Shown: in pieces, positions 36,511 through 47,778 of the stretch
Position numbering within the stretch: the stretch's first letter is position 1
Layout: each line of letters starts with the position of its first letter
Assembly: GCA_039679545.1 (NCBI GenBank)
Contig: JBDKUT010000015.1
Span: 1-47,786, forward strand
DNA: 47,786 nt
Source of the DNA: Thermotogota bacterium
Lineage (GTDB): Bacteria; Bipolaricaulota; Bipolaricaulia; UBA7950; UBA9294
Direction: 5' to 3'
Notes under the pieces: generated by a model
Told to the model about the DNA's origin: nothing
Database searches by the model: none
What the model saw: the letters and a program-made list of their open reading frames with translations, nothing else
Translations under genes and position numbers: made by a program

Positions 36511-37656
36511 CTAGAACGGAAACGCGTGCGAGACCACGATACGGTCGAACCCGGTCTTCGAAACCGCCAGGGAGAAGGTGAGGTCGCCCAATTCCACCGC
36601 CGGCTGACCAATGCAGCAGGCCAGGTCGAACCGCAGGGTGACTTGAGCCGACGGGATATCGAACTGCATCCCTCCTTCGTACTGGTCGATGATCTCAAAC
36701 GTCGGAGTCACGTTGACCGACCACGCCTCGAAGGCGCGCGTCCAGTTGAAGCTGAGGGCCAAGAGCGTGTCGGAGTCGAAGGCTACCGTCGACAGGAGTT
36801 GCCCTTCGAAGAACGGCCGGCGCATCGAGATGCTGCCCTGCACGAAGGCGTCCTCATACGCGAACGTCGCGTTGAGGGCGATGTCCCTGACGATGCCGCC
36901 GATGCTGAGCGAGGAGCTTTCGTAGGAGAAAAGGTCTGAGAACCTGGCGTTCGCGCGAAGCGTGAAGTCGTCCAAAAGAGGAATCGGTAGCTGACCGCTC
37001 CACGAGATGTTCTCCGAGTCAAGGCCCGTCTGCCCGAACAAGACGTCCAGCGCCGCTCGGCCCCCGCACAGCTCGAGGTCCGTCACGGAGAGGCGCAGTC
37101 CGGCAAAGGAGGGAATGCACCCCGCTTCTTCGATCTGCCCATAGGGGGTCGCGCCGAGTCCAAGAATGGTGGAGATCCGGGCGAACCCCTCGATGACCCC
37201 GGCGATTCGGATCGTCATCCCTGCGCCGATGGCGGACTCTGTCTGCGTCCCAAGCTCGGCAATCAGGAAGGTTGCGGAGTACGCGACTCCCCCCGACCGC
37301 CCGGACACGGACAGGTCAGCGCGGCTGAACCTGTCGCCTGTAAACGAGCCGCTCCCCTGAAGAGAGAGGTCGCCGAACGGAGCGCTGACTCGGAAGCTCT
37401 GAGCGAGAAGCCCTTCATTCGCGAAACTCGTCCGGCTCGAAATCGAGAACCGATCGTAGCGGTACGTGATGGCCAACGACTCGCTCAGCGTGAGCGTGGT
37501 GATGTCCATGTCCGACATGGACAAGGAGAACGTGTTCGCCCCGGACAGGGAGACCTGCGCGGCGGATGCGCCGAGGGGGACGAAGCTCAGAACGAGGCCG
37601 ACGACCACTCCCAGCCCGATGCTCTCCTTGGACCAGCGCAATCTCCCCTTGCCCAT
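36511..37656 (-). CDS. Secreted beta-strand-rich, outer-membrane-barrel-like protein
   Basis: Signal peptide, Ser/Thr-rich alternating strands, C-terminal HAFPF. Confidence 0.7.
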   Translation of the reverse strand: MGKGRLRWSKESIGLGVVVGLVLSFVPLGASAAQVSLSGANTFSLSMSDMDITTLTLSESLAITYRYDRFSISSRTSFANEGLLAQSFRVSAPFGDLSLQGSGSFTGDRFSRADLSVSGRSGGVAYSATFLIAELGTQTESAIGAGMTIRIAGVIEGFARISTILGLGATPYGQIEEAGCIPSFAGLRLSVTDLELCGGRAALDVLFGQTGLDSENISWSGQLPIPLLDDFTLRANARFSDLFSYESSSLSIGGIVRDIALNATFAYEDAFVQGSISMRRPFFEGQLLSTVAFDSDTLLALSFNWTRAFEAWSVNVTPTFEIIDQYEGGMQFDIPSAQVTLRFDLACCIGQPAVELGDLTFSLAVSKTGFDRIVVSHAFPF

Positions 37657-37825: not shown

Positions 37826-38191
37826 TCAGTCGACGTAGTCCTCGATATCGTCCAGCTGGCGCTGCATGGCATCGAGCATGTACTTGATGTCGTCGAGCGT
37901 CCACTTCTGGACGTCGAAGAAGCCGTACTGGGAGTCCGTCATTTTCACGGACACCTGATGAACCAGATCAACCTCGGCGTCAAGGTCCGCAAGCTCCTCC
38001 TCCACCGCGGTCATGCGCGCCTCGAGGAGGTCGAGCCGGTTCTTTCCCTCTGGTGTCACGAGAAGGTCGTAGACCTGCTGCAAAGTGACTGGAGCCGGAG
38101 AGGAGGTTTGCCCGGCAAAGAGCGCGAGACACACCCCCACAATCGCTACGGCTCCCAGAATCCCCGCCAGTCGGTACCCTCGCCTCTTCAT
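37826..38191 (-). CDS. Membrane-anchored coiled-coil hypothetical protein
   Basis: SD AAGGAGG, TAGAAT upstream, N-terminal TM, heptad-like acidic helix. Confidence 0.75.
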   Translation of the reverse strand: MKRRGYRLAGILGAVAIVGVCLALFAGQTSSPAPVTLQQVYDLLVTPEGKNRLDLLEARMTAVEEELADLDAEVDLVHQVSVKMTDSQYGFFDVQKWTLDDIKYMLDAMQRQLDDIEDYVD

Positions 38192-38289
38192 CGGTTCCTC
38201 CTTCTTCCTATTCAGTCCGATTCTACCTCGTTGCGCGCTTCCTGCTCGCCCCCAACAGTGTACGCCGAGGACAGACGAGCGAGAACTCC

Positions 38290-39654
38290 TCACGGGCGAC
38301 GAAGTCGCTCCACGGCGCCCCACGCGTCGACAAGTCCGTTTCCGAAAAGCACGTCCCGTCCTCGCTGTCCGAGATCCTCGCACGAACTCTCGAGGACAGC
38401 GATCGCTTCGTCGGCGGAGAGCTCGGGAGCGAGCGAGAGAATCAACGCGAGAATCCCGGACACATGCGGAGCGGCAAACGAGGTCCCCGATTCGGTCGCC
38501 GGTCTTCCGCCCGCAGTAAACGCCGTGATCGCGTCCCCGGGAGCGCAGACGGCCACCTCAGGTCCGCGATTGCTGAACGGCGCCAGAAGGTCGCTGCGAT
38601 CCGTCGCGGCCACGGCCAGAACTGAACGATACTTTCCTGGGTACATCACCTGGTTCTCTCCCCGGTTTCCGGAGATGCCCACGACGATCACCCCGCGCGC
38701 GCGCGCATCCGAGACGGCCTGCTCAAAGTAGTCGGGCGGACGGGCGCTCGCGTAGATGCTCAGGTTGATGATCCGAGCGCCGTTGTCCACCGCGTACTGG
38801 ATTGCGCGGACGAAGATCTTCCAATCCGAGGAGCCAAAGCGATTCGAGGAGTCGAGGAAGCGAACGTCCATGATCGACACCCCCGGGGCGACGCCGACGA
38901 TGGGGTACTCGCCGGGACGTGCGGCAATGATCGACGCAACAAACGTTCCGTGCCCGTGAAGCGGCGTGCCCGTGAGCGAGCTCGAGTCGTTATCCCGGAA
39001 ATCCCATCCGTGCACGTCGTCGATGTAGCCGTTGTGATCGTCATCGACGCCGTTGCCGGGCACCTCGTCGGGATTCGTCCAGAGGCTCGCGGCGACCTGG
39101 GGGATGCGGGCGTCGATGCCGGAGTCGATCACGGCGACGATCACGCTTGGGTCACCGTGCGATGCGGTCCAAGCTTCGGGTCCCCCGATTCGAACGAGGC
39201 CCCAGTTGCTCGGCTGCTGGTACACCGTGTAGAGACCCGGGTTCGGGGCGGGCTTCGGAGCGAGCGGAAGGGCCACGGAAAGGATCTGAAACGGCAACGT
39301 CCCCGACGTCAGGTTCCCGCCAACCTCCAGCGCGATCTCCAGGAGGTATGTTCCGGCGATCTGATACTCCCACCGACTGGTCGCCTCGACGACAACCAGG
39401 GCTCCCGCGTCTGCGGAGAACGGACCAACCGGAACTTGATCGATCCCCTGCCCGGAGTGCCCCATGTCCCGCAACGTCGCCGTTCCCCGCACGTTCTCCT
39501 GCGGGAATGCCGTGGAATTGGAGAACTGGAACGACACGGTGAAGGGGACGAGATTCACGATCTCAATCTTCTGAATCTGCGCTTCGCCGGCGGCCGTCCC
39601 GAGAGAGAGAATGACGAGGAGGACGGCGATACGCAGGACGCGCGGCTTCCTCAT
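38290..39654 (-). CDS. Secreted S8 (subtilisin-like) serine peptidase with an N-terminal Ig-like domain
   Basis: VIDSG (Asp), HGHGT (His), SGN, GTSFAAPHVSG (Ser); Ca-loop NGVDDDHNGYIDD; ATGA overlap with the upstream gene. Confidence 0.93.
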   Translation of the reverse strand: MRKPRVLRIAVLLVILSLGTAAGEAQIQKIEIVNLVPFTVSFQFSNSTAFPQENVRGTATLRDMGHSGQGIDQVPVGPFSADAGALVVVEATSRWEYQIAGTYLLEIALEVGGNLTSGTLPFQILSVALPLAPKPAPNPGLYTVYQQPSNWGLVRIGGPEAWTASHGDPSVIVAVIDSGIDARIPQVAASLWTNPDEVPGNGVDDDHNGYIDDVHGWDFRDNDSSSLTGTPLHGHGTFVASIIAARPGEYPIVGVAPGVSIMDVRFLDSSNRFGSSDWKIFVRAIQYAVDNGARIINLSIYASARPPDYFEQAVSDARARGVIVVGISGNRGENQVMYPGKYRSVLAVAATDRSDLLAPFSNRGPEVAVCAPGDAITAFTAGGRPATESGTSFAAPHVSGILALILSLAPELSADEAIAVLESSCEDLGQRGRDVLFGNGLVDAWGAVERLRRP

Positions 39655-40952
39655 CCAGCCCGATCCTCGTCTGCCTCCGCAAACCAGCGGAGAGCCTGAT
39701 CGAGCGACACCTCCTCCGTCTCTCCCCACCCGCCCGACCGAATCCGCAGGGTCACGGGGAAGGAGAAGAGCGACGTTACGTCGGAGGCAAAACGTTGGAG
39801 CCGTTCCGCTGCCACCGCCGCCCCGTCCGCCGGCGTCTCGGGGAGGATGGCCGCCAGACGATATGAGTCGATTCGGAACACCGTGTCGACCCTCCGCAAG
39901 CCCGAAACGAAGAAGGTCGATGCTCGTACCAGCGCGCGCGTTTGGTCTTCGAGCGCCCGGCCGGACAGGCCTTCGACGTCCAGCACGAGGGCCGACGTCG
40001 GGTGCTTGTACCGCCGTCCCTTGCTGAGTTCAATCTCGAGTTGCTCGCGGAAGTGAGCGGCGTTGTACAGGCCCGTGACGTCATCGAGGACGACGAGCTT
40101 CTTCAGTTCCTGTTCGTGTGAGTGGATGACTTTCGTCATCAGGTTGAACCGATCGACCAACTGCGCAACTTCGTCACGAACGGGCGTCCCGGGCGTCCTG
40201 GGCGGCAGCTTGACCTCCACTTCGTAGTCGCGCATGGCGACCGCGGCCGTCGCTTGCGCCAGCCGTCCGATCGGCCGAGTCACGATGGCGCGCAGCACAA
40301 GGAAGAGGCTTCCCCCCAAGAGGAGAAAGCCGACCACGGATCCCGCGGCAAATTGCCACGAGAGGCGGCGGTCGTAGGCGGCCATTTCGTCGGTCGACAT
40401 GTCCACGATCACGACGCCGACGAGGTCGGCCCCAGAGAGAATGGGCTGATAGGCACGCCACGCGCGAGTCCTCTCGGCGCGCTCCACGGTCGCTTCACTC
40501 CCTTGCATCTGTTCGTACCGCGCCCTGACCGTGTCCGAGGCGAGCTCTCCAACTTTCGTGGGGTCAGTGCTCGCGACCGTCAAGAACCCGCGCGCCGTCA
40601 CCCCGATGACCGTGATCTCGATGATGGATTCGTAGCGCGCAAGGAGTTGGTCGATGTCCGCACTGAGTTCGTTGGAATAGTAGAGGACGTAGTCCTTCTC
40701 CTGGATCGACTTTGAGATGAGGCTCGCAACGCTCCGAGCCCGCTGCTCGTAGATCGACCCGATCGACGCGTGAAGCGACACGAACGCGAACCAAGAGAGG
40801 GCTCCCACGACGGCGCACGCGATCAGGAGGACGGGGACGATCAACTTCCACTGCAGGGACGTCCCATACCGAATCGCGGACCTCATTCGCGCGGGCCGAC
40901 CGGGGTCCGATCGGCCGTTCTTCCGGGCCTTCGACTCGATGTTCGTACTCAT
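39651..40952 (-). CDS. Membrane sensor-HAMP protein with a degenerate GGDEF domain (I-site retained)
   Basis: 2 TM, HAMP (RDEVAQLVDRFN), DDVTGLYN, RRVD-TVFRI-DSYRL in place of RxxD-x5-GGDEF. Confidence 0.85.
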   Translation of the reverse strand: MSTNIESKARKNGRSDPGRPARMRSAIRYGTSLQWKLIVPVLLIACAVVGALSWFAFVSLHASIGSIYEQRARSVASLISKSIQEKDYVLYYSNELSADIDQLLARYESIIEITVIGVTARGFLTVASTDPTKVGELASDTVRARYEQMQGSEATVERAERTRAWRAYQPILSGADLVGVVIVDMSTDEMAAYDRRLSWQFAAGSVVGFLLLGGSLFLVLRAIVTRPIGRLAQATAAVAMRDYEVEVKLPPRTPGTPVRDEVAQLVDRFNLMTKVIHSHEQELKKLVVLDDVTGLYNAAHFREQLEIELSKGRRYKHPTSALVLDVEGLSGRALEDQTRALVRASTFFVSGLRRVDTVFRIDSYRLAAILPETPADGAAVAAERLQRFASDVTSLFSFPVTLRIRSGGWGETEEVSLDQALRWFAEADEDRAG

Positions 40953-40971
40953 AGCTCCTCTTCCTCGGCGG

Positions 40972-43386
40972 CTACTGGATCAATCCCTCGTTCCCCAGGA
41001 ACTCCATAACCACGTCGAGCGGCTCTCGATGGAGCAGGCGAACGCGGCTGACCATGCTGTGCAGGCTCTGTTCGGTCAAGTGAGTCTGCAACCCTACGAA
41101 GACCTGCTCGATCTCGGGGAACCGCCGAACGTCCTCTCGACCGACCAGGACACCGATGGGCTTCCCCGGCAGAGCGAAGGCATCGTCTTCGAGCCGCACA
41201 AACCCCGCCACGGTCGCCGTCTCCTCGACGTTCTCGAGCAGAGCCCCGGAGACCGATCCGAACTTGAGCAGGGCCTCCGCTTCCTCGCGCGTCGCGGTCC
41301 GACGCAGCGATCTTGCCGGCACTTCGTAGGCGGAGGTGAAGCGAGCTACGGCGTCGTCCGAAACCTCGCCAGGAACGGCAATCGTTCTCTCCTCCGCATC
41401 GCGGGAGCCCGCGAACGCGGAGATCGACGGCTTGTCCAATCCTCGGGCGATCTCCCCCGGGACAATCAGATCCCACCGCAGGTCCGTCGGCACGCTCCAG
41501 TACACGGGCGTTCCCGGCGGCGGAGCCGCGCCGACCCACCAGACGATATTCACGTCGCGCTCGCCTATCGCCGCCAGCAGCTCCTCCGATGTTCCAAGCC
41601 CCGCGAGGTCGACGACGCGAAACCCGACCTCGGAGAGCAGAACCTCGAGAGCCTGCCCGAGAACAAGGTCTACGAGGTCGCGCCCCGCGGCAACCACGAT
41701 CGTTCCCTTCCACGCCGTGTCGGGAAGATGGATGTTGCCGGACACAAGGGCATCATGGTGGATCCAGCGATTGCCCCCCGCGTAGAGCCGCTCAGCCGTC
41801 TCGTTCCTCACGTCGTGCAGGCGGTTCCTCTCGAACAGGTTGTTCTGGACGATCGGCGTCCCTCCAGGCGTCTCCTCGACAAGGGAGATTCCCAGCAACG
41901 GGAGGACGGTATCCTCTTCCGAGAGGGCTCCCTGCCACCGCAGGCCGACGTCGTTACCGACCAACCGATTCCCTACGACGCGGACCCCGAATCCGGGCGC
42001 GTACAGGCTGACGCCAACGTCACAGTCCGAGACTCGGTTCCCCTGGATCGTGTCACGCGAAGAGGTAGCACTGAGGATTCCCACCGCCGTCTCACTCACA
42101 GCGTTCTCGATCACATCGTTTCCTTGGCAGTGGTTGGCGAGGGCGACGCCGGAGAGCCTGCAGTGGTCCATCACGCTTCTCAGAACGGAGTTCTCGCTCG
42201 CTCCGACGAGGACGACACCCGATGCCGAATCGTTGATGCGGTTGTCGAGGAGACGGTTGCGGCGGGCCTCAGCAAGCAGGATCCCGGTCGTGTCCATCCG
42301 AGCGATCGTGTTGCCGAGTAGGCGCTCCTCCGAGGATCGCGTGAGGGCAATCCCTATCTTGCCGTCCGAGATGCGGTTCCGTGCGATCAGGTTCATGTCA
42401 CTCGCATCGATGCGAATTCCTGCATCGCGGCATTGCGACAGACGGCCGTCGACGAACGCGTTCTCTCCTCCCCCGGCAAATCGAACCCCATCCCCTGCCG
42501 AAGGTCCTACAACGTTTCGCTCGAGGTGGCTCCTACGGGCCTCGATGAGAGAGACGCCGACGTCCTCGACGGACGCTATGAGACAATCCAGGATGCGGTT
42601 CCCGTCTGTCTCCTCAAGGATCACGCCGACGCGCGATGCCCTGATTCGACTTGCCTCGAGCGCGTTGCCTCGTCCCCCAAGCACCTCGTAGCCGACGATC
42701 GACGCTCCGGCAATCCGTAGGCCGACAAAGACGTTGTCCTCCGATTCCCCGACGGAGACTCCCGTCGGTGCTCCATCGACCGACACGTTGCGAAATTCGT
42801 TCGCCGGGGCCTTCCGGAGTCGGATCCCGGTCTCGTCGCATCCGCGCAAGGCGATTCCCCGGAAGACGTTGCCCGACGAAGCAGAGACGTCGACACCAAT
42901 TGAACTTTCCTCGGCGGTCAGCCGCTCGAAGGTTCCCTGGCGGCTGCCGGAGAGGAGCACGGCGATCTCGTCGCCGCGAGCCCGAACATCCTCGACGCGG
43001 CATCCCACCCCTTCGACGACCAGGGCCACGGAGGTCCCCTGGATGTTGAGACGCCGCACGGCCGTGGCGTCCGCACGAAGGGTGACGACCGGCTCGTTCT
43101 GCCCGACAAGGACCGCTCGTCCCCGCGTCGACGTCAGGACGAGGCCTGCCGTGCCGAGCACCACAGGTCCGGCGTACGGTCCTCGGCGGGCATCAAGGAC
43201 GATCGTTGTCCCCTCGGCGGCGACCTGAAGGGCCTCCGCAAGAGTGGCGGCGTCACGCGGAACGAAGAGACTTCCTTCGGGAAAGCGGTCGCGCGTAGCG
43301 ACCCAAACAACCAGTACGACCATCGCCACCACGCCGACCGCAGCGATGGCGACCCAGAACGGCTTCCTCCTGCGTGCGTGTTTCAT
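40972..43386 (-). CDS. Membrane-anchored right-handed beta-helix (NosD-like) protein fused to a glycine-betaine/OpuAC-like binding domain
   Basis: N-terminal TM, many G-I-x-L...N-x-I repeats, C-terminal GFRVVD..LG, SISAF, LEDD..P, helix ending EFL..EGLI. Confidence 0.78.
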   Translation of the reverse strand: MKHARRRKPFWVAIAAVGVVAMVVLVVWVATRDRFPEGSLFVPRDAATLAEALQVAAEGTTIVLDARRGPYAGPVVLGTAGLVLTSTRGRAVLVGQNEPVVTLRADATAVRRLNIQGTSVALVVEGVGCRVEDVRARGDEIAVLLSGSRQGTFERLTAEESSIGVDVSASSGNVFRGIALRGCDETGIRLRKAPANEFRNVSVDGAPTGVSVGESEDNVFVGLRIAGASIVGYEVLGGRGNALEASRIRASRVGVILEETDGNRILDCLIASVEDVGVSLIEARRSHLERNVVGPSAGDGVRFAGGGENAFVDGRLSQCRDAGIRIDASDMNLIARNRISDGKIGIALTRSSEERLLGNTIARMDTTGILLAEARRNRLLDNRINDSASGVVLVGASENSVLRSVMDHCRLSGVALANHCQGNDVIENAVSETAVGILSATSSRDTIQGNRVSDCDVGVSLYAPGFGVRVVGNRLVGNDVGLRWQGALSEEDTVLPLLGISLVEETPGGTPIVQNNLFERNRLHDVRNETAERLYAGGNRWIHHDALVSGNIHLPDTAWKGTIVVAAGRDLVDLVLGQALEVLLSEVGFRVVDLAGLGTSEELLAAIGERDVNIVWWVGAAPPPGTPVYWSVPTDLRWDLIVPGEIARGLDKPSISAFAGSRDAEERTIAVPGEVSDDAVARFTSAYEVPARSLRRTATREEAEALLKFGSVSGALLENVEETATVAGFVRLEDDAFALPGKPIGVLVGREDVRRFPEIEQVFVGLQTHLTEQSLHSMVSRVRLLHREPLDVVMEFLGNEGLIQ

Positions 43387-43472: not shown

Positions 43473-44003
43473 CTAGTCGGGCATGATTGTGCAGACGAGG
43501 AGGGCTTCTCCGTTCGCCCTGTCGGGGCTCGACCCATCCAGGGCCACCCGCACGTCAATACCGACGTCAAACGTGCCGTTGGAGCCGCTGCAGAGGACGA
43601 CCGGCTGGTCTCCGAGCGCCGCGTAGCCGCGCCCGTGTTCCCTCACGCGCACTGGCGGGAACCCTCTCCCAGAGGAGGTGGCCCAGCGTACCTGAAGGCG
43701 CCACGGCGTGTTGCTGACTATGCGGAAGCGGAAGGCATTCTCGTCTTCAATGTAGCCGCGTGAGCGCTCGAGGGCCGATGCAGGTCGGAAGCTGTATGAG
43801 ACTGCGGTCACGTCCTCGGACGACCCGGCCAAGCGGAGCGTCTGGTAGGGGAGGACTCGCCATCGCACGTCGACGGACACCGACTTCTCGACGGCGTACG
43901 CCGCGACGGCGACAACGGACAGCGCGAGGACAACAGCCCAGACCCATCGGCGGCCCACCAAGCAAGAACCTCCCGATCGCTCCACGCTCGGATCCTCCTC
44001 CAC
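43473..44003 (-). CDS. Secreted beta-sandwich, pilin/fimbrial-subunit-like protein
   Basis: Signal peptide (AYA), VSVDVRWRV..SNTPWRLQV.., terminal hydrophobic strand; start uncertain. Confidence 0.55.
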   Translation of the reverse strand: MEEDPSVERSGGSCLVGRRWVWAVVLALSVVAVAAYAVEKSVSVDVRWRVLPYQTLRLAGSSEDVTAVSYSFRPASALERSRGYIEDENAFRFRIVSNTPWRLQVRWATSSGRGFPPVRVREHGRGYAALGDQPVVLCSGSNGTFDVGIDVRVALDGSSPDRANGEALLVCTIMPD

Positions 44004-44022
44004 GTGCTTCCATTCTTCCTCA

Positions 44023-45075
44023 TTACGGAATCGATAAGACGCGGCCGAGAAGGGCGGTGATGTCGGCTGTGGTGAGGATGCCATCGTTGTCGAAATCGAA
44101 CGCACGAACGTTGTTCCGGACAGCCGGGAGGTCGAGAGAGGCCTCGAAGAGAGCCACATCGGCGCCATCGAGGTCTCCGTCTCCATCGATGTCCTCGAAC
44201 AGTCCATCTCGGTTTACATCCTGGGGAGGTCTCGGAAAGGTTCCGAGCGGCACGAGGGTGAGCTCTGGAACGCGAAGGATGATCTGCCCTGCGACGAGGT
44301 AGTCGCCTCCGAAGTCGATCACGGTCCGAACGAGGAACATCCCCGAATCGAGCAGGCTCCACGGTGTCTTCACGACGGCGTCCACCGAGTGCCCGGGAAG
44401 AATGGAGAGATGGGGTAGAGAGGTTTCGGCGAGCGTGGCACCGCTCGGAGATTGGATGGAGAGCGTTCCGAGAACGTCGTCAAGCCGCGTCTCCCCGCGA
44501 TTCGCGACGCTGAACTCGATGGTGAGCGGCGAGAGACCGAGCGCAGTGACCCGTGTGACGGCCGCACCTTGCGCGGCTGGGAGGGACGTAACGTAGATCT
44601 TGACGAGGAACTCCCGCGCCACGCGGATTCCACTCTCCTCCGGGCCGGCGTCAACCGGGCTCACAGCAACAAGGAGGCCCGCCCAGTACGTGCCCGCCAC
44701 CCCCGCAGGGACGGAGATGCCGCAAGAGACTTCAACCTCGTCCGCGGGGCGCAGCACGTACGTGGGTGCCGACAGAGCGAGCCACGTCGCGCACGAGCGC
44801 TCAAGGGTTCCGGAACGGGAAAGACGAGTCACGCCGTCGGGGTCCTCGTCCCAGTCGCATGGCGAGATGTCAACGCGGAGGGGCGAGTTCTCGTCGTTGA
44901 GGACCGTGAAGCGCACTTCCAGATTGGATCCCGGCCCCACGACGAGGGAGAACTCCGACACCGAGACAGTGATTCCTGGAGCCGACACGGAAGCGCCAAC
45001 CACTGCGGCCAACACAAGGACTCCCCACTCGAGGAGCCTGCGTCCGTTGCCACCGGCCTCGCGACGAGCGCTCAT
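44023..45075 (-). CDS. Fimbrial-chaperone-like two-Ig-domain protein with a C-terminal dockerin
   Basis: FTVLN..DW..DG..SCATWL..VP..GTYWAGLLV, N-G-(E)T motif; DVNRDGLFEDIDGDGDLDGAD...FDFDNDGILTTADI. Confidence 0.7.
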   Translation of the reverse strand: MSARREAGGNGRRLLEWGVLVLAAVVGASVSAPGITVSVSEFSLVVGPGSNLEVRFTVLNDENSPLRVDISPCDWDEDPDGVTRLSRSGTLERSCATWLALSAPTYVLRPADEVEVSCGISVPAGVAGTYWAGLLVAVSPVDAGPEESGIRVAREFLVKIYVTSLPAAQGAAVTRVTALGLSPLTIEFSVANRGETRLDDVLGTLSIQSPSGATLAETSLPHLSILPGHSVDAVVKTPWSLLDSGMFLVRTVIDFGGDYLVAGQIILRVPELTLVPLGTFPRPPQDVNRDGLFEDIDGDGDLDGADVALFEASLDLPAVRNNVRAFDFDNDGILTTADITALLGRVLSIP

Positions 45076-45148
45076 GGTTCCCTGTGTAACGCCCTCGACC
45101 TGCCGAAACAAGAGCACGTGGCGCGGAGAGGTTTCGGCGGCCGCGCCG

Positions 45149-46855
45149 TCACGCGGCTGCCGCTCGCAGCCTCTCGAGGACGCCGTCCAACGGCTCCGGA
45201 CGACCGATGTGGAACCCCTGCGCACAATCGACGCCGATCGCCCGCAGGACGTCCAGCGTCTCCTCCGTTTCGACGAACTCCGCGATCGTTCGCTTGCCGA
45301 GGCCCTTGGCCAGCTGGACCATCGCCACAACCAAGTGCTGATCGACTGGGTCGCGTCCGAGGTTGCGGATGAAGCTCCCATCGATCTTGAGGTAGTCCAC
45401 GTCCAGGTTCTTGAGCTGGTAGAACGAGGAAAACCCCATGCCGAAGTCGTCGAGCGCGAACTCGTACCCTTGCGTTCTCAGGGCGCGGAGGAAGTCCTTG
45501 GCCACGTGGATGTTGTAGATCGCTGCCGTTTCTGTGATCTCGAGCACGAGCCGGACAGGGCCGATGACCGACAGCGATGTTCGGCTCGAAATTGCAGACA
45601 AGAGGGCGGGGTCGGTGAGCGACCGCGGCGAGAGATTCACGGCGAACGAGACATCGCTCGGCAGCTGCTCGTCGGCCAGCGTGTCCATGACCTTCTGAAG
45701 GACCCACCGGTCGATGTCCCCACTGAGCCCGAACTGCTCGGCAACGTCGAGGAACGCGCCGGGTGGAATGATTTGCCCGCTGCGCCCTAGGAGGCGAAGG
45801 AGGATCTCATAGCGGATGATCCGATTCTCGACGAGATCGAGGATGGGCTGCGCGTAGAGGATGAACCCGTCGTTCTCAAGGGCGTTTCGGATTACGCGAA
45901 GCCAATCCACGCGCGATTCGGGGTCGTCAACCTTCTCCTCGTCAGGAGAGTAGAGGCAAGACCGATTGCGCCCTTGCGCTTTCGCTCGGTACATCGCCAT
46001 GTCGGCCTTCATGAGGAGCTCACTTGCGCTCGTTCCGTGATCGGGGAAGAGGACAATCCCGAGGCTTGCCGTCGTTCGAAGCGTCTCCCCGTCGATCACC
46101 GCGGTGTGCTTCCGCACCGCATCGAGCAGCCGTCCCGCGGCAATCTGGGCCTGTTCGCTGTCTACGTTCAGGTAGAGGACGGCAAATTCATCGCCTCCAA
46201 GACGAGCGAGGATGTCCGAATCCCTGACGGTCGCCCGCATTCGATGGGCAAGACTCGCGAGGAGATCGTCGCCGACCTTGTGGCCCAGACCGTCGTTGAT
46301 CTCTTTGAACCCGTCGAGGTCCATCCACAGGACGGCGCCACGCCGTTCGTAGCGACGGGCCTCCGCGAGATGCCGCTCGAGGAGATGCCCGAACTCCCGG
46401 CGGTTGCAGAGCCCGGTCAGGGGGTCGTGCGTCGCGAGGTGAAGCAGCCGTTCCTCCTGCTTCCGAAGCTGGGTGATGTCCGTGAGGATCCCCTCGTGGT
46501 AGAGGATCTCCCCCTTCCTGTCGCGAACAGCGCGCGCGTTCAGAAGAGCGGCGACGGACGGACCATCCTTCGCTCGCAGCATCATCTCGGCGTTCTCAAC
46601 GCGAACCCCTTCCCGCAGCTGGCGCAGAACGACTCCGGCATCGCTCTCCACCTGGAACACGTCCGTCATCCGCGTCTGTCGGAGCTGGCCCGCGTCGCGA
46701 TAGCCGAGCATGTGCGCCAACGCGTCGTTGGCCAGGACCAGCCGCCCGTCGGGCGAACACTGGTAGATTCCGTTCGACGCGTGGCGGAAGAGGTCCTCGA
46801 AACGTCGATCCACACTTGACGTCCTCTCTCCACCCGCCGTGTTTCGCCTCTCCAC
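45149..46855 (-). CDS. PAS-GGDEF-EAL diguanylate cyclase/phosphodiesterase
   Basis: PAS/PAC; HDPLTGL, DLDGFKEIND, RDSD-ILARL-GGDEF; EILLR, DDFGMG, KIDGSF, AEFVE, QGF; SD GAGGAGG before GTG 46855. Confidence 0.95.
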   Translation of the reverse strand: MERRNTAGGERTSSVDRRFEDLFRHASNGIYQCSPDGRLVLANDALAHMLGYRDAGQLRQTRMTDVFQVESDAGVVLRQLREGVRVENAEMMLRAKDGPSVAALLNARAVRDRKGEILYHEGILTDITQLRKQEERLLHLATHDPLTGLCNRREFGHLLERHLAEARRYERRGAVLWMDLDGFKEINDGLGHKVGDDLLASLAHRMRATVRDSDILARLGGDEFAVLYLNVDSEQAQIAAGRLLDAVRKHTAVIDGETLRTTASLGIVLFPDHGTSASELLMKADMAMYRAKAQGRNRSCLYSPDEEKVDDPESRVDWLRVIRNALENDGFILYAQPILDLVENRIIRYEILLRLLGRSGQIIPPGAFLDVAEQFGLSGDIDRWVLQKVMDTLADEQLPSDVSFAVNLSPRSLTDPALLSAISSRTSLSVIGPVRLVLEITETAAIYNIHVAKDFLRALRTQGYEFALDDFGMGFSSFYQLKNLDVDYLKIDGSFIRNLGRDPVDQHLVVAMVQLAKGLGKRTIAEFVETEETLDVLRAIGVDCAQGFHIGRPEPLDGVLERLRAAAA

Positions 46856-46957
46856 GTCGCCTCCTCGCCAACGTCGCACTGACCGCGGTCGCCGCGTTCC
46901 GAGCCCAACCTGCTCCAGGAGCGAGAAGAGCGAGCCGCGACCTGGGCATCGTGCAGG

Positions 46958-47278
46958 TCAAAGCTCCGAAAGAAGCTCGACGCCGATCGCCGCCAGCCAA
47001 CACAAGAAACTTCGCTCGATTGTCGCGTCAAAGAACGTCAGCCCGCGGGGCCCGTGAGCCGTCGTGAACCGCCCGATGTAGTCCATGATGGCAGTCCAGT
47101 CCTCGTCAGGAATTCCATCGTGAATCGCGTGCGGTTTGTCCACCCGAAGCATCCGCAAGATGTCGTCGATCGTGTACTCCTGGAGGCGGTCGGCGACGTC
47201 GGCGAAGCGGACATCGCGCCCCTCATCCAAAAGACAGAGGACCCCCTGGACGAACTTCCTCACTGAACTTCGATACAT
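46958..47278 (-). CDS. Hypothetical cytoplasmic helical protein (~106 aa)
   Basis: SD GGGAGG before ATG 47278; natural composition; no recognised motif. Confidence 0.6.
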   Translation of the reverse strand: MYRSSVRKFVQGVLCLLDEGRDVRFADVADRLQEYTIDDILRMLRVDKPHAIHDGIPDEDWTAIMDYIGRFTTAHGPRGLTFFDATIERSFLCWLAAIGVELLSEL

Positions 47279-47623
47279 CCATGGCCTCCCGATGGCGAGT
47301 CTATGCACCGCACCCCACCGCGGAAGGGACACTCGTACGTCGTTGAACTCCCGTTTCTCTCCTTCCGCGAGCACCGCGTGGACGGCGGGCAGGGGCGGTG
47401 ACCGCTACCCTCGCTCGGATCGCCACTCTGCGGACAGGCTCCCGCCGAGCGCGAATGTCTGAAACCGGGTCGTACGGGGCAGAATCGGGTAGCGGTCCTT
47501 GACAAGTGAACTGAGACGGGCGCAGGGAGAAGCTCCCTGCGCGAAGGGTTGATGGAAAAACGATTCGAAGATTGCGGCGGGCGGTCCGCCGCAATGCAGT
47601 CATATCCTCACTCGAAGCATCTA

Positions 47624-47703
47624 CCAAAGGCAAACCGCTCGAAAGGGCGGGACGCAAAGCTACGGACCTTCCAGGCGAGGCTCGCGCGAGCGGGTCTGCG
47701 TGA
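47624..47703 (+). ncRNA. c-di-GMP-I (GEMM) riboswitch aptamer A: intact 5' half, non-canonical 3' half
   Basis: AAGGCAAACC-gctc-GAAA-gggc-GGGACGCAAAGCTAC; no canonical ..GCTGCCGA closure before the next aptamer. Confidence 0.7.
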
Positions 47704-47778
47704 CAAGGGCAAACCAGGGGTGACCCTGGGACGCAAAGCTACGAGCCTCGGGCGACCGAGGTAGTCGAGCTGCCGAGG
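47694..47778 (+). ncRNA. c-di-GMP-I (GEMM) riboswitch aptamer B
   Basis: AGGGCAAACC-aggg-GTGA-ccct-GGGACGCAAAGCTACGAGCCTCGG-gcga-CCGAGGTAGTCGAGCTGCCGA; G at the position equivalent to Vc2 G20. Confidence 0.92.

Follow-up and report, generated by a model that had tools for sequence, protein, structure and literature searches.

A three-gene unit restricted to a Bipolaricaulota lineage, encoding a degenerate GGDEF receptor and a subtilase, as a candidate Lap-like c-di-GMP switch

Introduction

Inside-out control, in which cyclic di-GMP (c-di-GMP) governs a periplasmic protease, is known from the LapD and LapG proteins (PMC3032553, PMC5231407), and a locus in the phylum Bipolaricaulota raises the question whether the same logic has been built from other parts. 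The locus lies on contig JBDKUT010000015.1 of assembly GCA_039679545.1, of which the whole stretch of 47,786 nucleotides (nt) is referred to as the window, and it consists of three adjacent genes, designated A, B and C, that encode an anchored beta-helix protein, a transmembrane protein with a degenerate GGDEF domain, and an S8 protease. The initial annotation of this DNA took A for an adhesin that is released by C under control of B. In the available text of an earlier Bipolaricaulota genome study, dealing with a different genome, no pili or adhesin genes are reported (PMC6092417), and the available part of a review mentions GGDEF proteins of Bipolaricaulota without describing the A-B-C unit. 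The literature searched, which comprised main texts and few subscription papers, contained no description of the unit.

The comparisons reported here establish that the unit is real and restricted to a lineage, and A, B and C very probably act together. The reading that is tentatively preferred, at slightly less than an even chance, is that c-di-GMP binding to B gates protease C outside the membrane, which would make the system inside-out and Lap-like in its logic.

Results

Conservation and linkage of the three genes

All three genes lie on the minus strand; a gap of 19 nt separates A from B (40953-40971), and B and C share an ATGA overlap (39651-39654), exactly as initially annotated. An overlap of 4 nt recurs in 29 of 45 B-C pairs, with gene starts picked by a script. 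A promoter scan returned 0 sites, and terminators were at chance level.

Distribution was determined in a phylum set of 184 genomes, and gene order in a linkage set of 140 B segments, drawn from genome stretches (58) and metagenome loci (80) that partly overlap; the linkage counts cover related rather than independent sequences, and are to be read as conservation and not as a statistical test. B was present in 50 of the 184 genomes (51 matches minus one distant 27% match), A in 52, and the C-specific immunoglobulin (Ig)-like region in 48 (50 minus two weak matches that fall on the neighbouring gene G). The three occurred together in 47 genomes and at least one of them in 53, all but one of which belong to the window's family; in three genomes with a single one of these genes, that gene sits at a contig end. 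Submitter labels of the B-bearing relatives were mostly Bipolaricaulota or Acetothermia, with Thermotogae and Atribacteria among the others.

A was directly upstream in 126 of the 140 B segments, the remainder being 13 at a contig edge and 1 that is the second half of a frameshift-split gene, which corresponds to 126 of the 127 segments having upstream sequence. C was directly downstream in 105 of the 140, absent in 23 (one of them the first half of that split gene) and beyond an edge in 12, i.e., it follows B in 105 of the 128 segments having downstream sequence. The synteny on which the initial annotation had built its proposal therefore extends to relatives, and the three genes have been gained and lost jointly in surroundings where the flanking genes vary. 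Nine genomes carry two different B copies, and since each copy with upstream sequence has its own A and C remains single, A and B form a constant pair, and C is shared or sometimes lost. In a quick tree of 58 B proteins the copies that lack C group together; these paralogues shift a few columns (E69 and R73 of B, D593 and L785 of A), which track lineages, and two genomes without C show none of these shifts. In one congener (L068, G144:C85) the receptor gene is split across two frames, by assembly error or as a pseudogene.

B as a degenerate GGDEF protein with a conserved I-site

B contains hydrophobic segments at residues 31-64 and 200-225, matches the HAMP and GGDEF families of Pfam, and matches sCache_3_2 below the cut-off. 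R353-x-x-D356 is followed by five residues and then by DSYRL at 362-366, and alignment with WspR and other cyclases revealed that GG(D/E)EF and part of the substrate-binding loop are missing. The protein ends after the GGDEF domain, so that no cytoplasmic output domain remains, and no EAL match was obtained in it. The initial description of B as a protein with two transmembrane segments, a HAMP domain, and DSYRL replacing GGDEF five residues downstream of RxxD is accurate, with the caveat that DSYRL itself is not conserved; only R365 is kept (120 of 122 sequences).

Among the best 120 of 300 matches to B, GG(D/E)EF was found in none and RxxD in every one. Moreover, R314, R353, D356 and R384 are invariant in all 122 distinct B sequences, which share a mean domain identity of 57%, and together with K311 they belong to the 18 of 130 GGDEF columns that are invariant; eight other Arg-rich columns, R360 and R365 excepted, contain 34-76% Arg. 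The conservation of RxxD in orthologues, which the initial annotation had singled out for inspection, is thus complete. As controls, RxxD was present in all 8 other GGDEF proteins of the window's genome and in 24 of 24 intact GGDEF motifs from 11 relatives. RxxD is therefore the default of the lineage and its presence alone is a weak argument, the informative part being its invariance after catalytic loss.

K311 and R314 align to arginines of WspR and are taken here to correspond to PleD R313 and WspR R198, and R384 presumably holds the position of PleD R390. The I-site of PleD comprises RxxD and R390 as well as R313 of the partner domain, and c-di-GMP cross-links the two domains (PMC7288161). 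By its sequence, B belongs with the PelD/PopA class of degenerate-GGDEF I-site receptors, and it is highly likely to bind c-di-GMP. A full-scoring GGDEF domain, as a possible source of c-di-GMP, was detected in 11 of 12 small B-bearing genomes. Several GGDEF proteins of the window's genome (G000, contigs C8 and C143) and of several relatives keep GGDEF and RxxD but mismatch DxDxFKxxND, and partly degenerate cyclases may be common in the window's family.

A profile of the outside domain of B found 9 proteins among 1.84 billion representatives, and a PDB sequence search with this domain returned chance matches only. Two full-length B homologues (P0180 and P0181, 34% identical) have an intact GGDEF motif and RxxD and share YxLYYS-like residues, and they lack the outside loop G117/R121/G122, which is invariant in B. 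The loop thus goes with loss of the catalytic motif, an indication that a sensor cyclase gave rise to B and that B acquired a new surface on its outside part.

C as a subtilase with an Ig-like domain

C has an N-terminal hydrophobic segment and a Peptidase_S8 match with D177, H235 and S392. The triad and the oxyanion Asn are invariant in 41 of 41 members, and the fold matches the subtilisin type, which bears out the secreted S8 protease with an intact triad of the initial annotation. No I9 propeptide was matched in the 41 members; in its place stands a conserved Ig-like sandwich (Z about 11) that is homologous to the second domain of G (probability 97%). All 56 longer proteins found with the Ig-like domain of C were S8 proteases. 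In one of them, P0121 (790 amino acids, aa), a membrane segment joins a ~200-aa N-terminal part without a Pfam match to an Ig-S8 module like that of C, here with two Ig domains; the N-terminal part presumably resembles an nSTAND-type NTPase tail. An Atlas search with the Ig domain gave no usable match, and a PDB sequence search gave chance matches only.

The cleft of C, its positions being assigned by what we take to be subtilisin numbering, is lined by bulky residues at Y/F301, I327 and 337 (mostly M or L), and these three positions suggest a narrow specificity. PF06035, the C93 family of LapG, had no match in the 93.6%-complete genome of the window.

A as a stalked, membrane-anchored partner of B

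In accordance with the initial annotation, A is a membrane-anchored beta-helix protein, with a single N-terminal hydrophobic segment (7-33) and Pfam NosD/Beta_helix matches. Its model (mean predicted local distance difference test score, pLDDT, of 91) displays an N-terminal helix, a long beta-helix, and a C-terminal domain that matches OpuCC, ProX and EgtU; Pfam assigns OpuAC to 46 of 49 A proteins, and the Foldseek match to OpuCC has an E value of 3e-11. In this head the EYTG segment of OpuCC/ProX/EgtU-type binding proteins is deleted, and D611, E704 and R783 are invariant. Of the features of OpuAC/OsmF proteins, A has the fold and lacks the aromatic ligand cage, the residues of which were assumed, and the adjoining ABC transporter genes; no transporter genes occur in its unit, and a canonical copy with transporter-like neighbours is encoded on contig C105. 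In a weak search, 33 of 33 longer matches to the head combined it with a beta-helix.

The conserved residues of the beta-helix are mostly Gly and Asn, and no catalytic cluster was seen; the scarcity of conserved polar residues fits a structural stalk. Its length is almost constant (509-526 aa in 47 of 49 proteins), and only about 8 residues lie between the membrane anchor and the fold. AxA occurs in the N-terminal segment of 11 of 49 A proteins, and judged by its sequence this segment resembles an anchor that stays uncleaved. An AAG motif of the LapA type, close to the membrane, was found in 0 of 49.

The window's genome encodes an Omp85-family protein, and for a relative a simple diderm envelope has been suggested, in a text that calls the matter unsettled (PMC6092417). 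Given these two points and the uncleaved-looking anchor, a periplasmic location of A is more likely than a role as surface adhesin. The cell being probably diderm, A resembles a stalk fixed in the inner membrane and topped by a binding-protein head, and it behaves as the dedicated partner of B. It also lacks the repeat architecture of adhesins. It is probably not the adhesin, and this part of the original proposal is not supported.

Upstream genes, aptamers and giant repeat proteins

The features of the locus are listed in Table 1.

Table 1. Coordinates of the three-gene unit and of linked features in the window
Feature	Position	Strand	Description
Gene A	40972-43386	minus	804 aa; N-terminal membrane anchor, ~520-aa parallel beta-helix, C-terminal degenerate OpuAC/OsmF-type solute-binding domain
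A beta-helix	41722-43281	minus	aa 36-555
A solute-binding-protein domain	40975-41721	minus	aa 556-804
Gene B	39651-40952	minus	433 aa; transmembrane segment, sCache-like domain, transmembrane segment, HAMP, catalytically dead GGDEF
B I-site motif R353-x-x-D356	39885-39896	minus	invariant in 122 of 122 sequences
B DSYRL in place of GG(D/E)EF	39855-39869	minus	aa 362-366
Gene C	38290-39654	minus	454 aa; signal peptide-like segment, Ig-like domain, S8 protease D177/H235/S392, N330
C Ig-like domain	39274-39576	minus	aa 27-127; invariant SRW motif; homologous to second domain of G
Gene F	43473-44018	minus	start uncertain; small secreted protein; frequently linked
Gene G	44023-45078	minus	two-domain protein, dockerin-like tail; frequently linked
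Gene H	45149-46879	minus	PAS-GGDEF-EAL, intact GGDEF and EAL-type motifs; frequently linked
c-di-GMP-I riboswitch aptamer	47619-47688	plus	RF01051, 40.4 bits, cut-off 35
c-di-GMP-I-GGC aptamer	47699-47778	plus	RF03167, 68.7 bits, cut-off 59

Genes F, G and H were found in 20, 15 and 15 of 60 fetched stretches, many of which are truncated. F has a weak pilin-like resemblance (named families scoring under 0.9, a lead only), and G is presumably pilus-chaperone-like by resemblance. A small open reading frame (ORF) without a Pfam match (46958-47374, minus) is conserved in 20 of 57 loci of relatives, where it precedes H or A. Downstream of C, a 122-aa membrane-anchored coiled-coil protein (37826-38194, minus) and a 381-aa beta-rich outer-membrane-like protein (36511-37656, minus) occur only in three close congeners.

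At the right end of the window, Rfam detected tandem c-di-GMP-I aptamers that point away from the operon, both above the gathering thresholds of their families in clan CL00126. Such aptamers stand beside the locus in 8 of 12 relatives scanned, which were picked for showing the upstream cluster. The recurring upstream ORF clusters had also been considered as ribosomal RNA; this was rejected, Rfam having found riboswitches and no ribosomal RNA. The ligand of the aptamers, the GGC variant included, could differ from c-di-GMP.

In relatives, the aptamer leads secreted-looking proteins of 1,250-2,850 residues, with 8-19 Big_9/cadherin repeats and a conserved C-terminal module that contains LTD, and DUF11/CARDB proteins, which reach 4,600 residues, often come next. 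Of 57 loci, 39 have at least 4.6 kb of sequence upstream of B, and in 19 of these a giant gene begins there in divergent orientation. In 25 of 26 giants the C-terminal module is preceded by a linker rich in Gly and Ala, which recalls the LapA-type sites tabulated in PMC3032553. These cadherin/Ig-repeat proteins are better LapA analogues than A. The LTD-containing module (~335 aa, with a beta-strand-like end, e.g., L281:7236-8246) caps many large secreted proteins and may be a phylum-specific surface-sorting or anchoring domain.

In the window's genome, contig C36 contains a 4,383-codon ORF, and contig C90 a Big_9/LTD giant, an S8 paralogue and the apparent start of the C36 protein. One contig of a congener matches C36 first and the right end of the window next, which points to the contig order C90-C36-C15, no contig overlap having been found. 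On that order the giants of this genome would be co-directional and the aptamers antisense, without a large ORF after them. In the window's genus the aptamers seem to follow a giant gene in antisense orientation instead of leading it, an arrangement such as an inversion would leave. The cluster that probably adjoins the window (L237; G000 C90:1-12775 and C36:643-13791) encodes two very large proteins, one of ~1,830 aa with Big_9/LTD domains and one of ~5,000 aa of the DUF11/CARDB kind, together with a 757-aa Ig-repeat protein, an outer-membrane-like protein and an S8 paralogue whose N-terminus is short and beta-helix-like. Elsewhere in the genome (L238; G000 C133:6300-11200), two small pilin-like genes, a G-like chaperone gene and a gene for a 900-aa possible usher make up a possible cluster of the chaperone-usher kind; the phylum has been reported to be without pili.

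Discussion

B has no cytoplasmic enzyme, and it combines an invariant ligand site with a HAMP domain, a highly conserved outside domain and a translational overlap with C, which makes inside-out control of C the simplest reading. According to this scheme, c-di-GMP would bind the dead cyclase domain of B at the I-site; by analogy with PleD, the two GGDEF domains in a dimer of B would become cross-linked through the intercalated ligand, and the conformation of the HAMP domain would thereby be fixed; the HAMP domain would pass the signal to the outside sCache-like domain, and the latter would hold or release protease C. A is the predicted dedicated membrane partner, as co-receptor or tether, and the neighbouring giant repeat proteins, or A itself, might be substrates of C. 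The giants are a possible rather than a likely substrate and A is somewhat more doubtful, the remaining probability falling to other proteins. The most elaborate version is a Lap-type switch that evolved independently in a deep-branching phylum: giant cadherin-repeat adhesins would be released at the Gly/Ala linker by the joint action of the I-site receptor, itself a former diguanylate cyclase, a co-receptor built as a stalked pseudo-binding protein, and a subtilase with a chaperone domain, and c-di-GMP riboswitches would control the synthesis of these same adhesins; as a whole this is rather doubtful.

Several observations weigh against inside-out control of C. The constant partner of B is A and not C, and 22 B copies have no C downstream; two genomes of 91-92% completeness (G152, G157) and one of 85% (G141) have no C match, and the conserved residues of B are kept there. 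The YxLYYS motif was present before the GGDEF motif was lost, in keeping with an ancestral role in sensing, and no intact GGDEF domain was found in G148 (93% complete). The top scores of inter-protein mutual information, from 86-115 paired sequences, lay close to those of controls (z of 7.0-9.3 for plausible pairs, and 6.5-6.8 for cytoplasm-versus-outside control pairs). Moreover, at least two of the bulky cleft residues of C are shared by the S8 paralogue on contig C90, the context of which is unrelated. As to the giants, their C-terminal module occurs in 83 of 184 genomes, of which 38 lack B, and 5 of 50 B-bearing genomes do not have it, and the Gly/Ala linker likewise occurs in genomes without B; the link of the giants to the unit is not obligate, because module and B are not strictly co-distributed.

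The constancy of the A-B pair, duplicates included, would also be explained by outside-in or coincidence sensing, in which the head of A, perhaps freed from its stalk by C, would dock on the sCache domain of B in the manner of NspS and MbaA, and B with bound c-di-GMP would act on a partner in the cytoplasm, for instance H. The OpuAC-fold head with its invariant acidic residues and the descent of B from Cache-HAMP-GGDEF sensors are in agreement with this, and receptors with Cache domains that are stimulated by solute-binding proteins are known (PMC8050422). However, B has no catalytic output, H was present in only 15 of the 60 fetched stretches, subject to the truncation mentioned above, and the ligand-cage segment of A is deleted; in addition, the head would stand on a stalk of ~100 angstrom (estimated from ~21 rungs), far from the membrane-proximal domain of B unless the stalk is cut or tilted. 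Sensing of this kind is considered unlikely.

Less probable still is that B serves as a PelD-like, c-di-GMP-dependent scaffold for surface structures (A, F, G and the giants), with C maturing surface proteins without regulation, as SphB1 does FhaB. The homology between the Ig domain of C and the second domain of G would fit such a role, as would the persistence of A-B where C is single-copy or lost, and processing of an adhesin precursor by a subtilisin-type protease has a precedent (PMC6070651). Yet it is B with which C overlaps translationally, and not F, G or the giants, which come and go, and no secretion or polysaccharide machine is conserved in the locus.

The literal model of the initial annotation, with surface adhesin A cut off the cell by C under control of B, is improbable. 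In its favour, A is adjacent in every case, CdrA is a further adhesin that LapG cleaves (PMC4694147), and the outer membrane of the cell is described as not settled (PMC6092417). Nevertheless, with an Omp85-family protein in the genome an inner-membrane-anchored protein of 800 aa would likely be periplasmic, the spacing between anchor and fold is short and AAG is absent from 49 of 49 proteins, the near-fixed length of the beta-helix (509-526 aa in 47 of 49) argues against an adhesin, and proper repeat adhesins are encoded nearby. The interpretation of the initial annotation is partly supported: linkage, I-site and triad, and the aptamers and the GGDEF-EAL gene beside the unit, speak for it, and A as the released adhesin finds no support. 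Finally, a conserved neighbourhood without a shared pathway, with RxxD as a structural relic of the GGDEF fold, would accord with RxxD in 24 of 24 intact GGDEF motifs and with the conserved chromosomal neighbourhood of unrelated genes around the locus, but it is very improbable in view of the joint gain and loss of the three genes amid varying flanks and because every I-site residue has stayed invariant in 122 sequences although catalysis was lost.

If inside-out control of C is true, a version with an I-site, a subtilase and a third membrane partner would imply that this logic evolved more than once and that cross-linking of GGDEF domains can drive a HAMP domain outward, and it would provide a concrete c-di-GMP output in Bipolaricaulota. 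A, B and C can all be expressed and tested in laboratory hosts.

Among known systems, PelD, PopA and CdgG (PMC3032553, PMC12564702, PMC7288161) resemble B in having lost the catalytic motif and kept RxxD with a downstream Arg. Unlike B, which has an outside Cache-like domain, a HAMP domain and a paired protease, their partners are a polysaccharide synthase or a cytoplasmic protease adaptor. The Vibrio pairs NspS/MbaA and ScrB/ScrC (PMC8050422) share with the unit a solute-binding-protein gene beside that of a transmembrane Cache-type c-di-GMP protein, whereas the binding domain of A is degenerate and fused to a membrane-anchored beta-helix, B has no predicted enzyme activity, and the unit includes a protease. 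In Bordetella, SphB1/FhaB (PMC6070651) likewise ties a subtilisin-type protease to adhesin processing, but C is no autotransporter, A is no two-partner-secretion protein, and a c-di-GMP receptor gene lies between A and C.

The closest parallel is with LapD/LapG/LapA of Pseudomonas fluorescens (PMC3032553, PMC5231407), in which a receptor with two transmembrane segments, a PDC/Cache-like outside domain, a HAMP domain and a dead c-di-GMP enzyme domain is likewise encoded beside a secreted protease and near giant repeat adhesin-like genes. LapD binds c-di-GMP via a degenerate EAL domain, whereas B has no EAL domain and an I-site instead; the GWxQ protease-binding loop of LapD has no counterpart, as there is no GW in the consensus of 28 B outside domains; LapG is a C93 cysteine protease, whereas C is an S8 serine protease with an Ig-like domain; and LapA has an N-terminal AAG-type cleavage site, whereas in the giants, whose N-termini resemble signal peptides and which have no RTX match, a Gly/Ala linker lies close to the C-terminus. 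The stalked binding-protein partner A is an additional component. As four defining features fail, the unit is not a member of the LapD/LapG system, although on the preferred inside-out reading it would be Lap-like.

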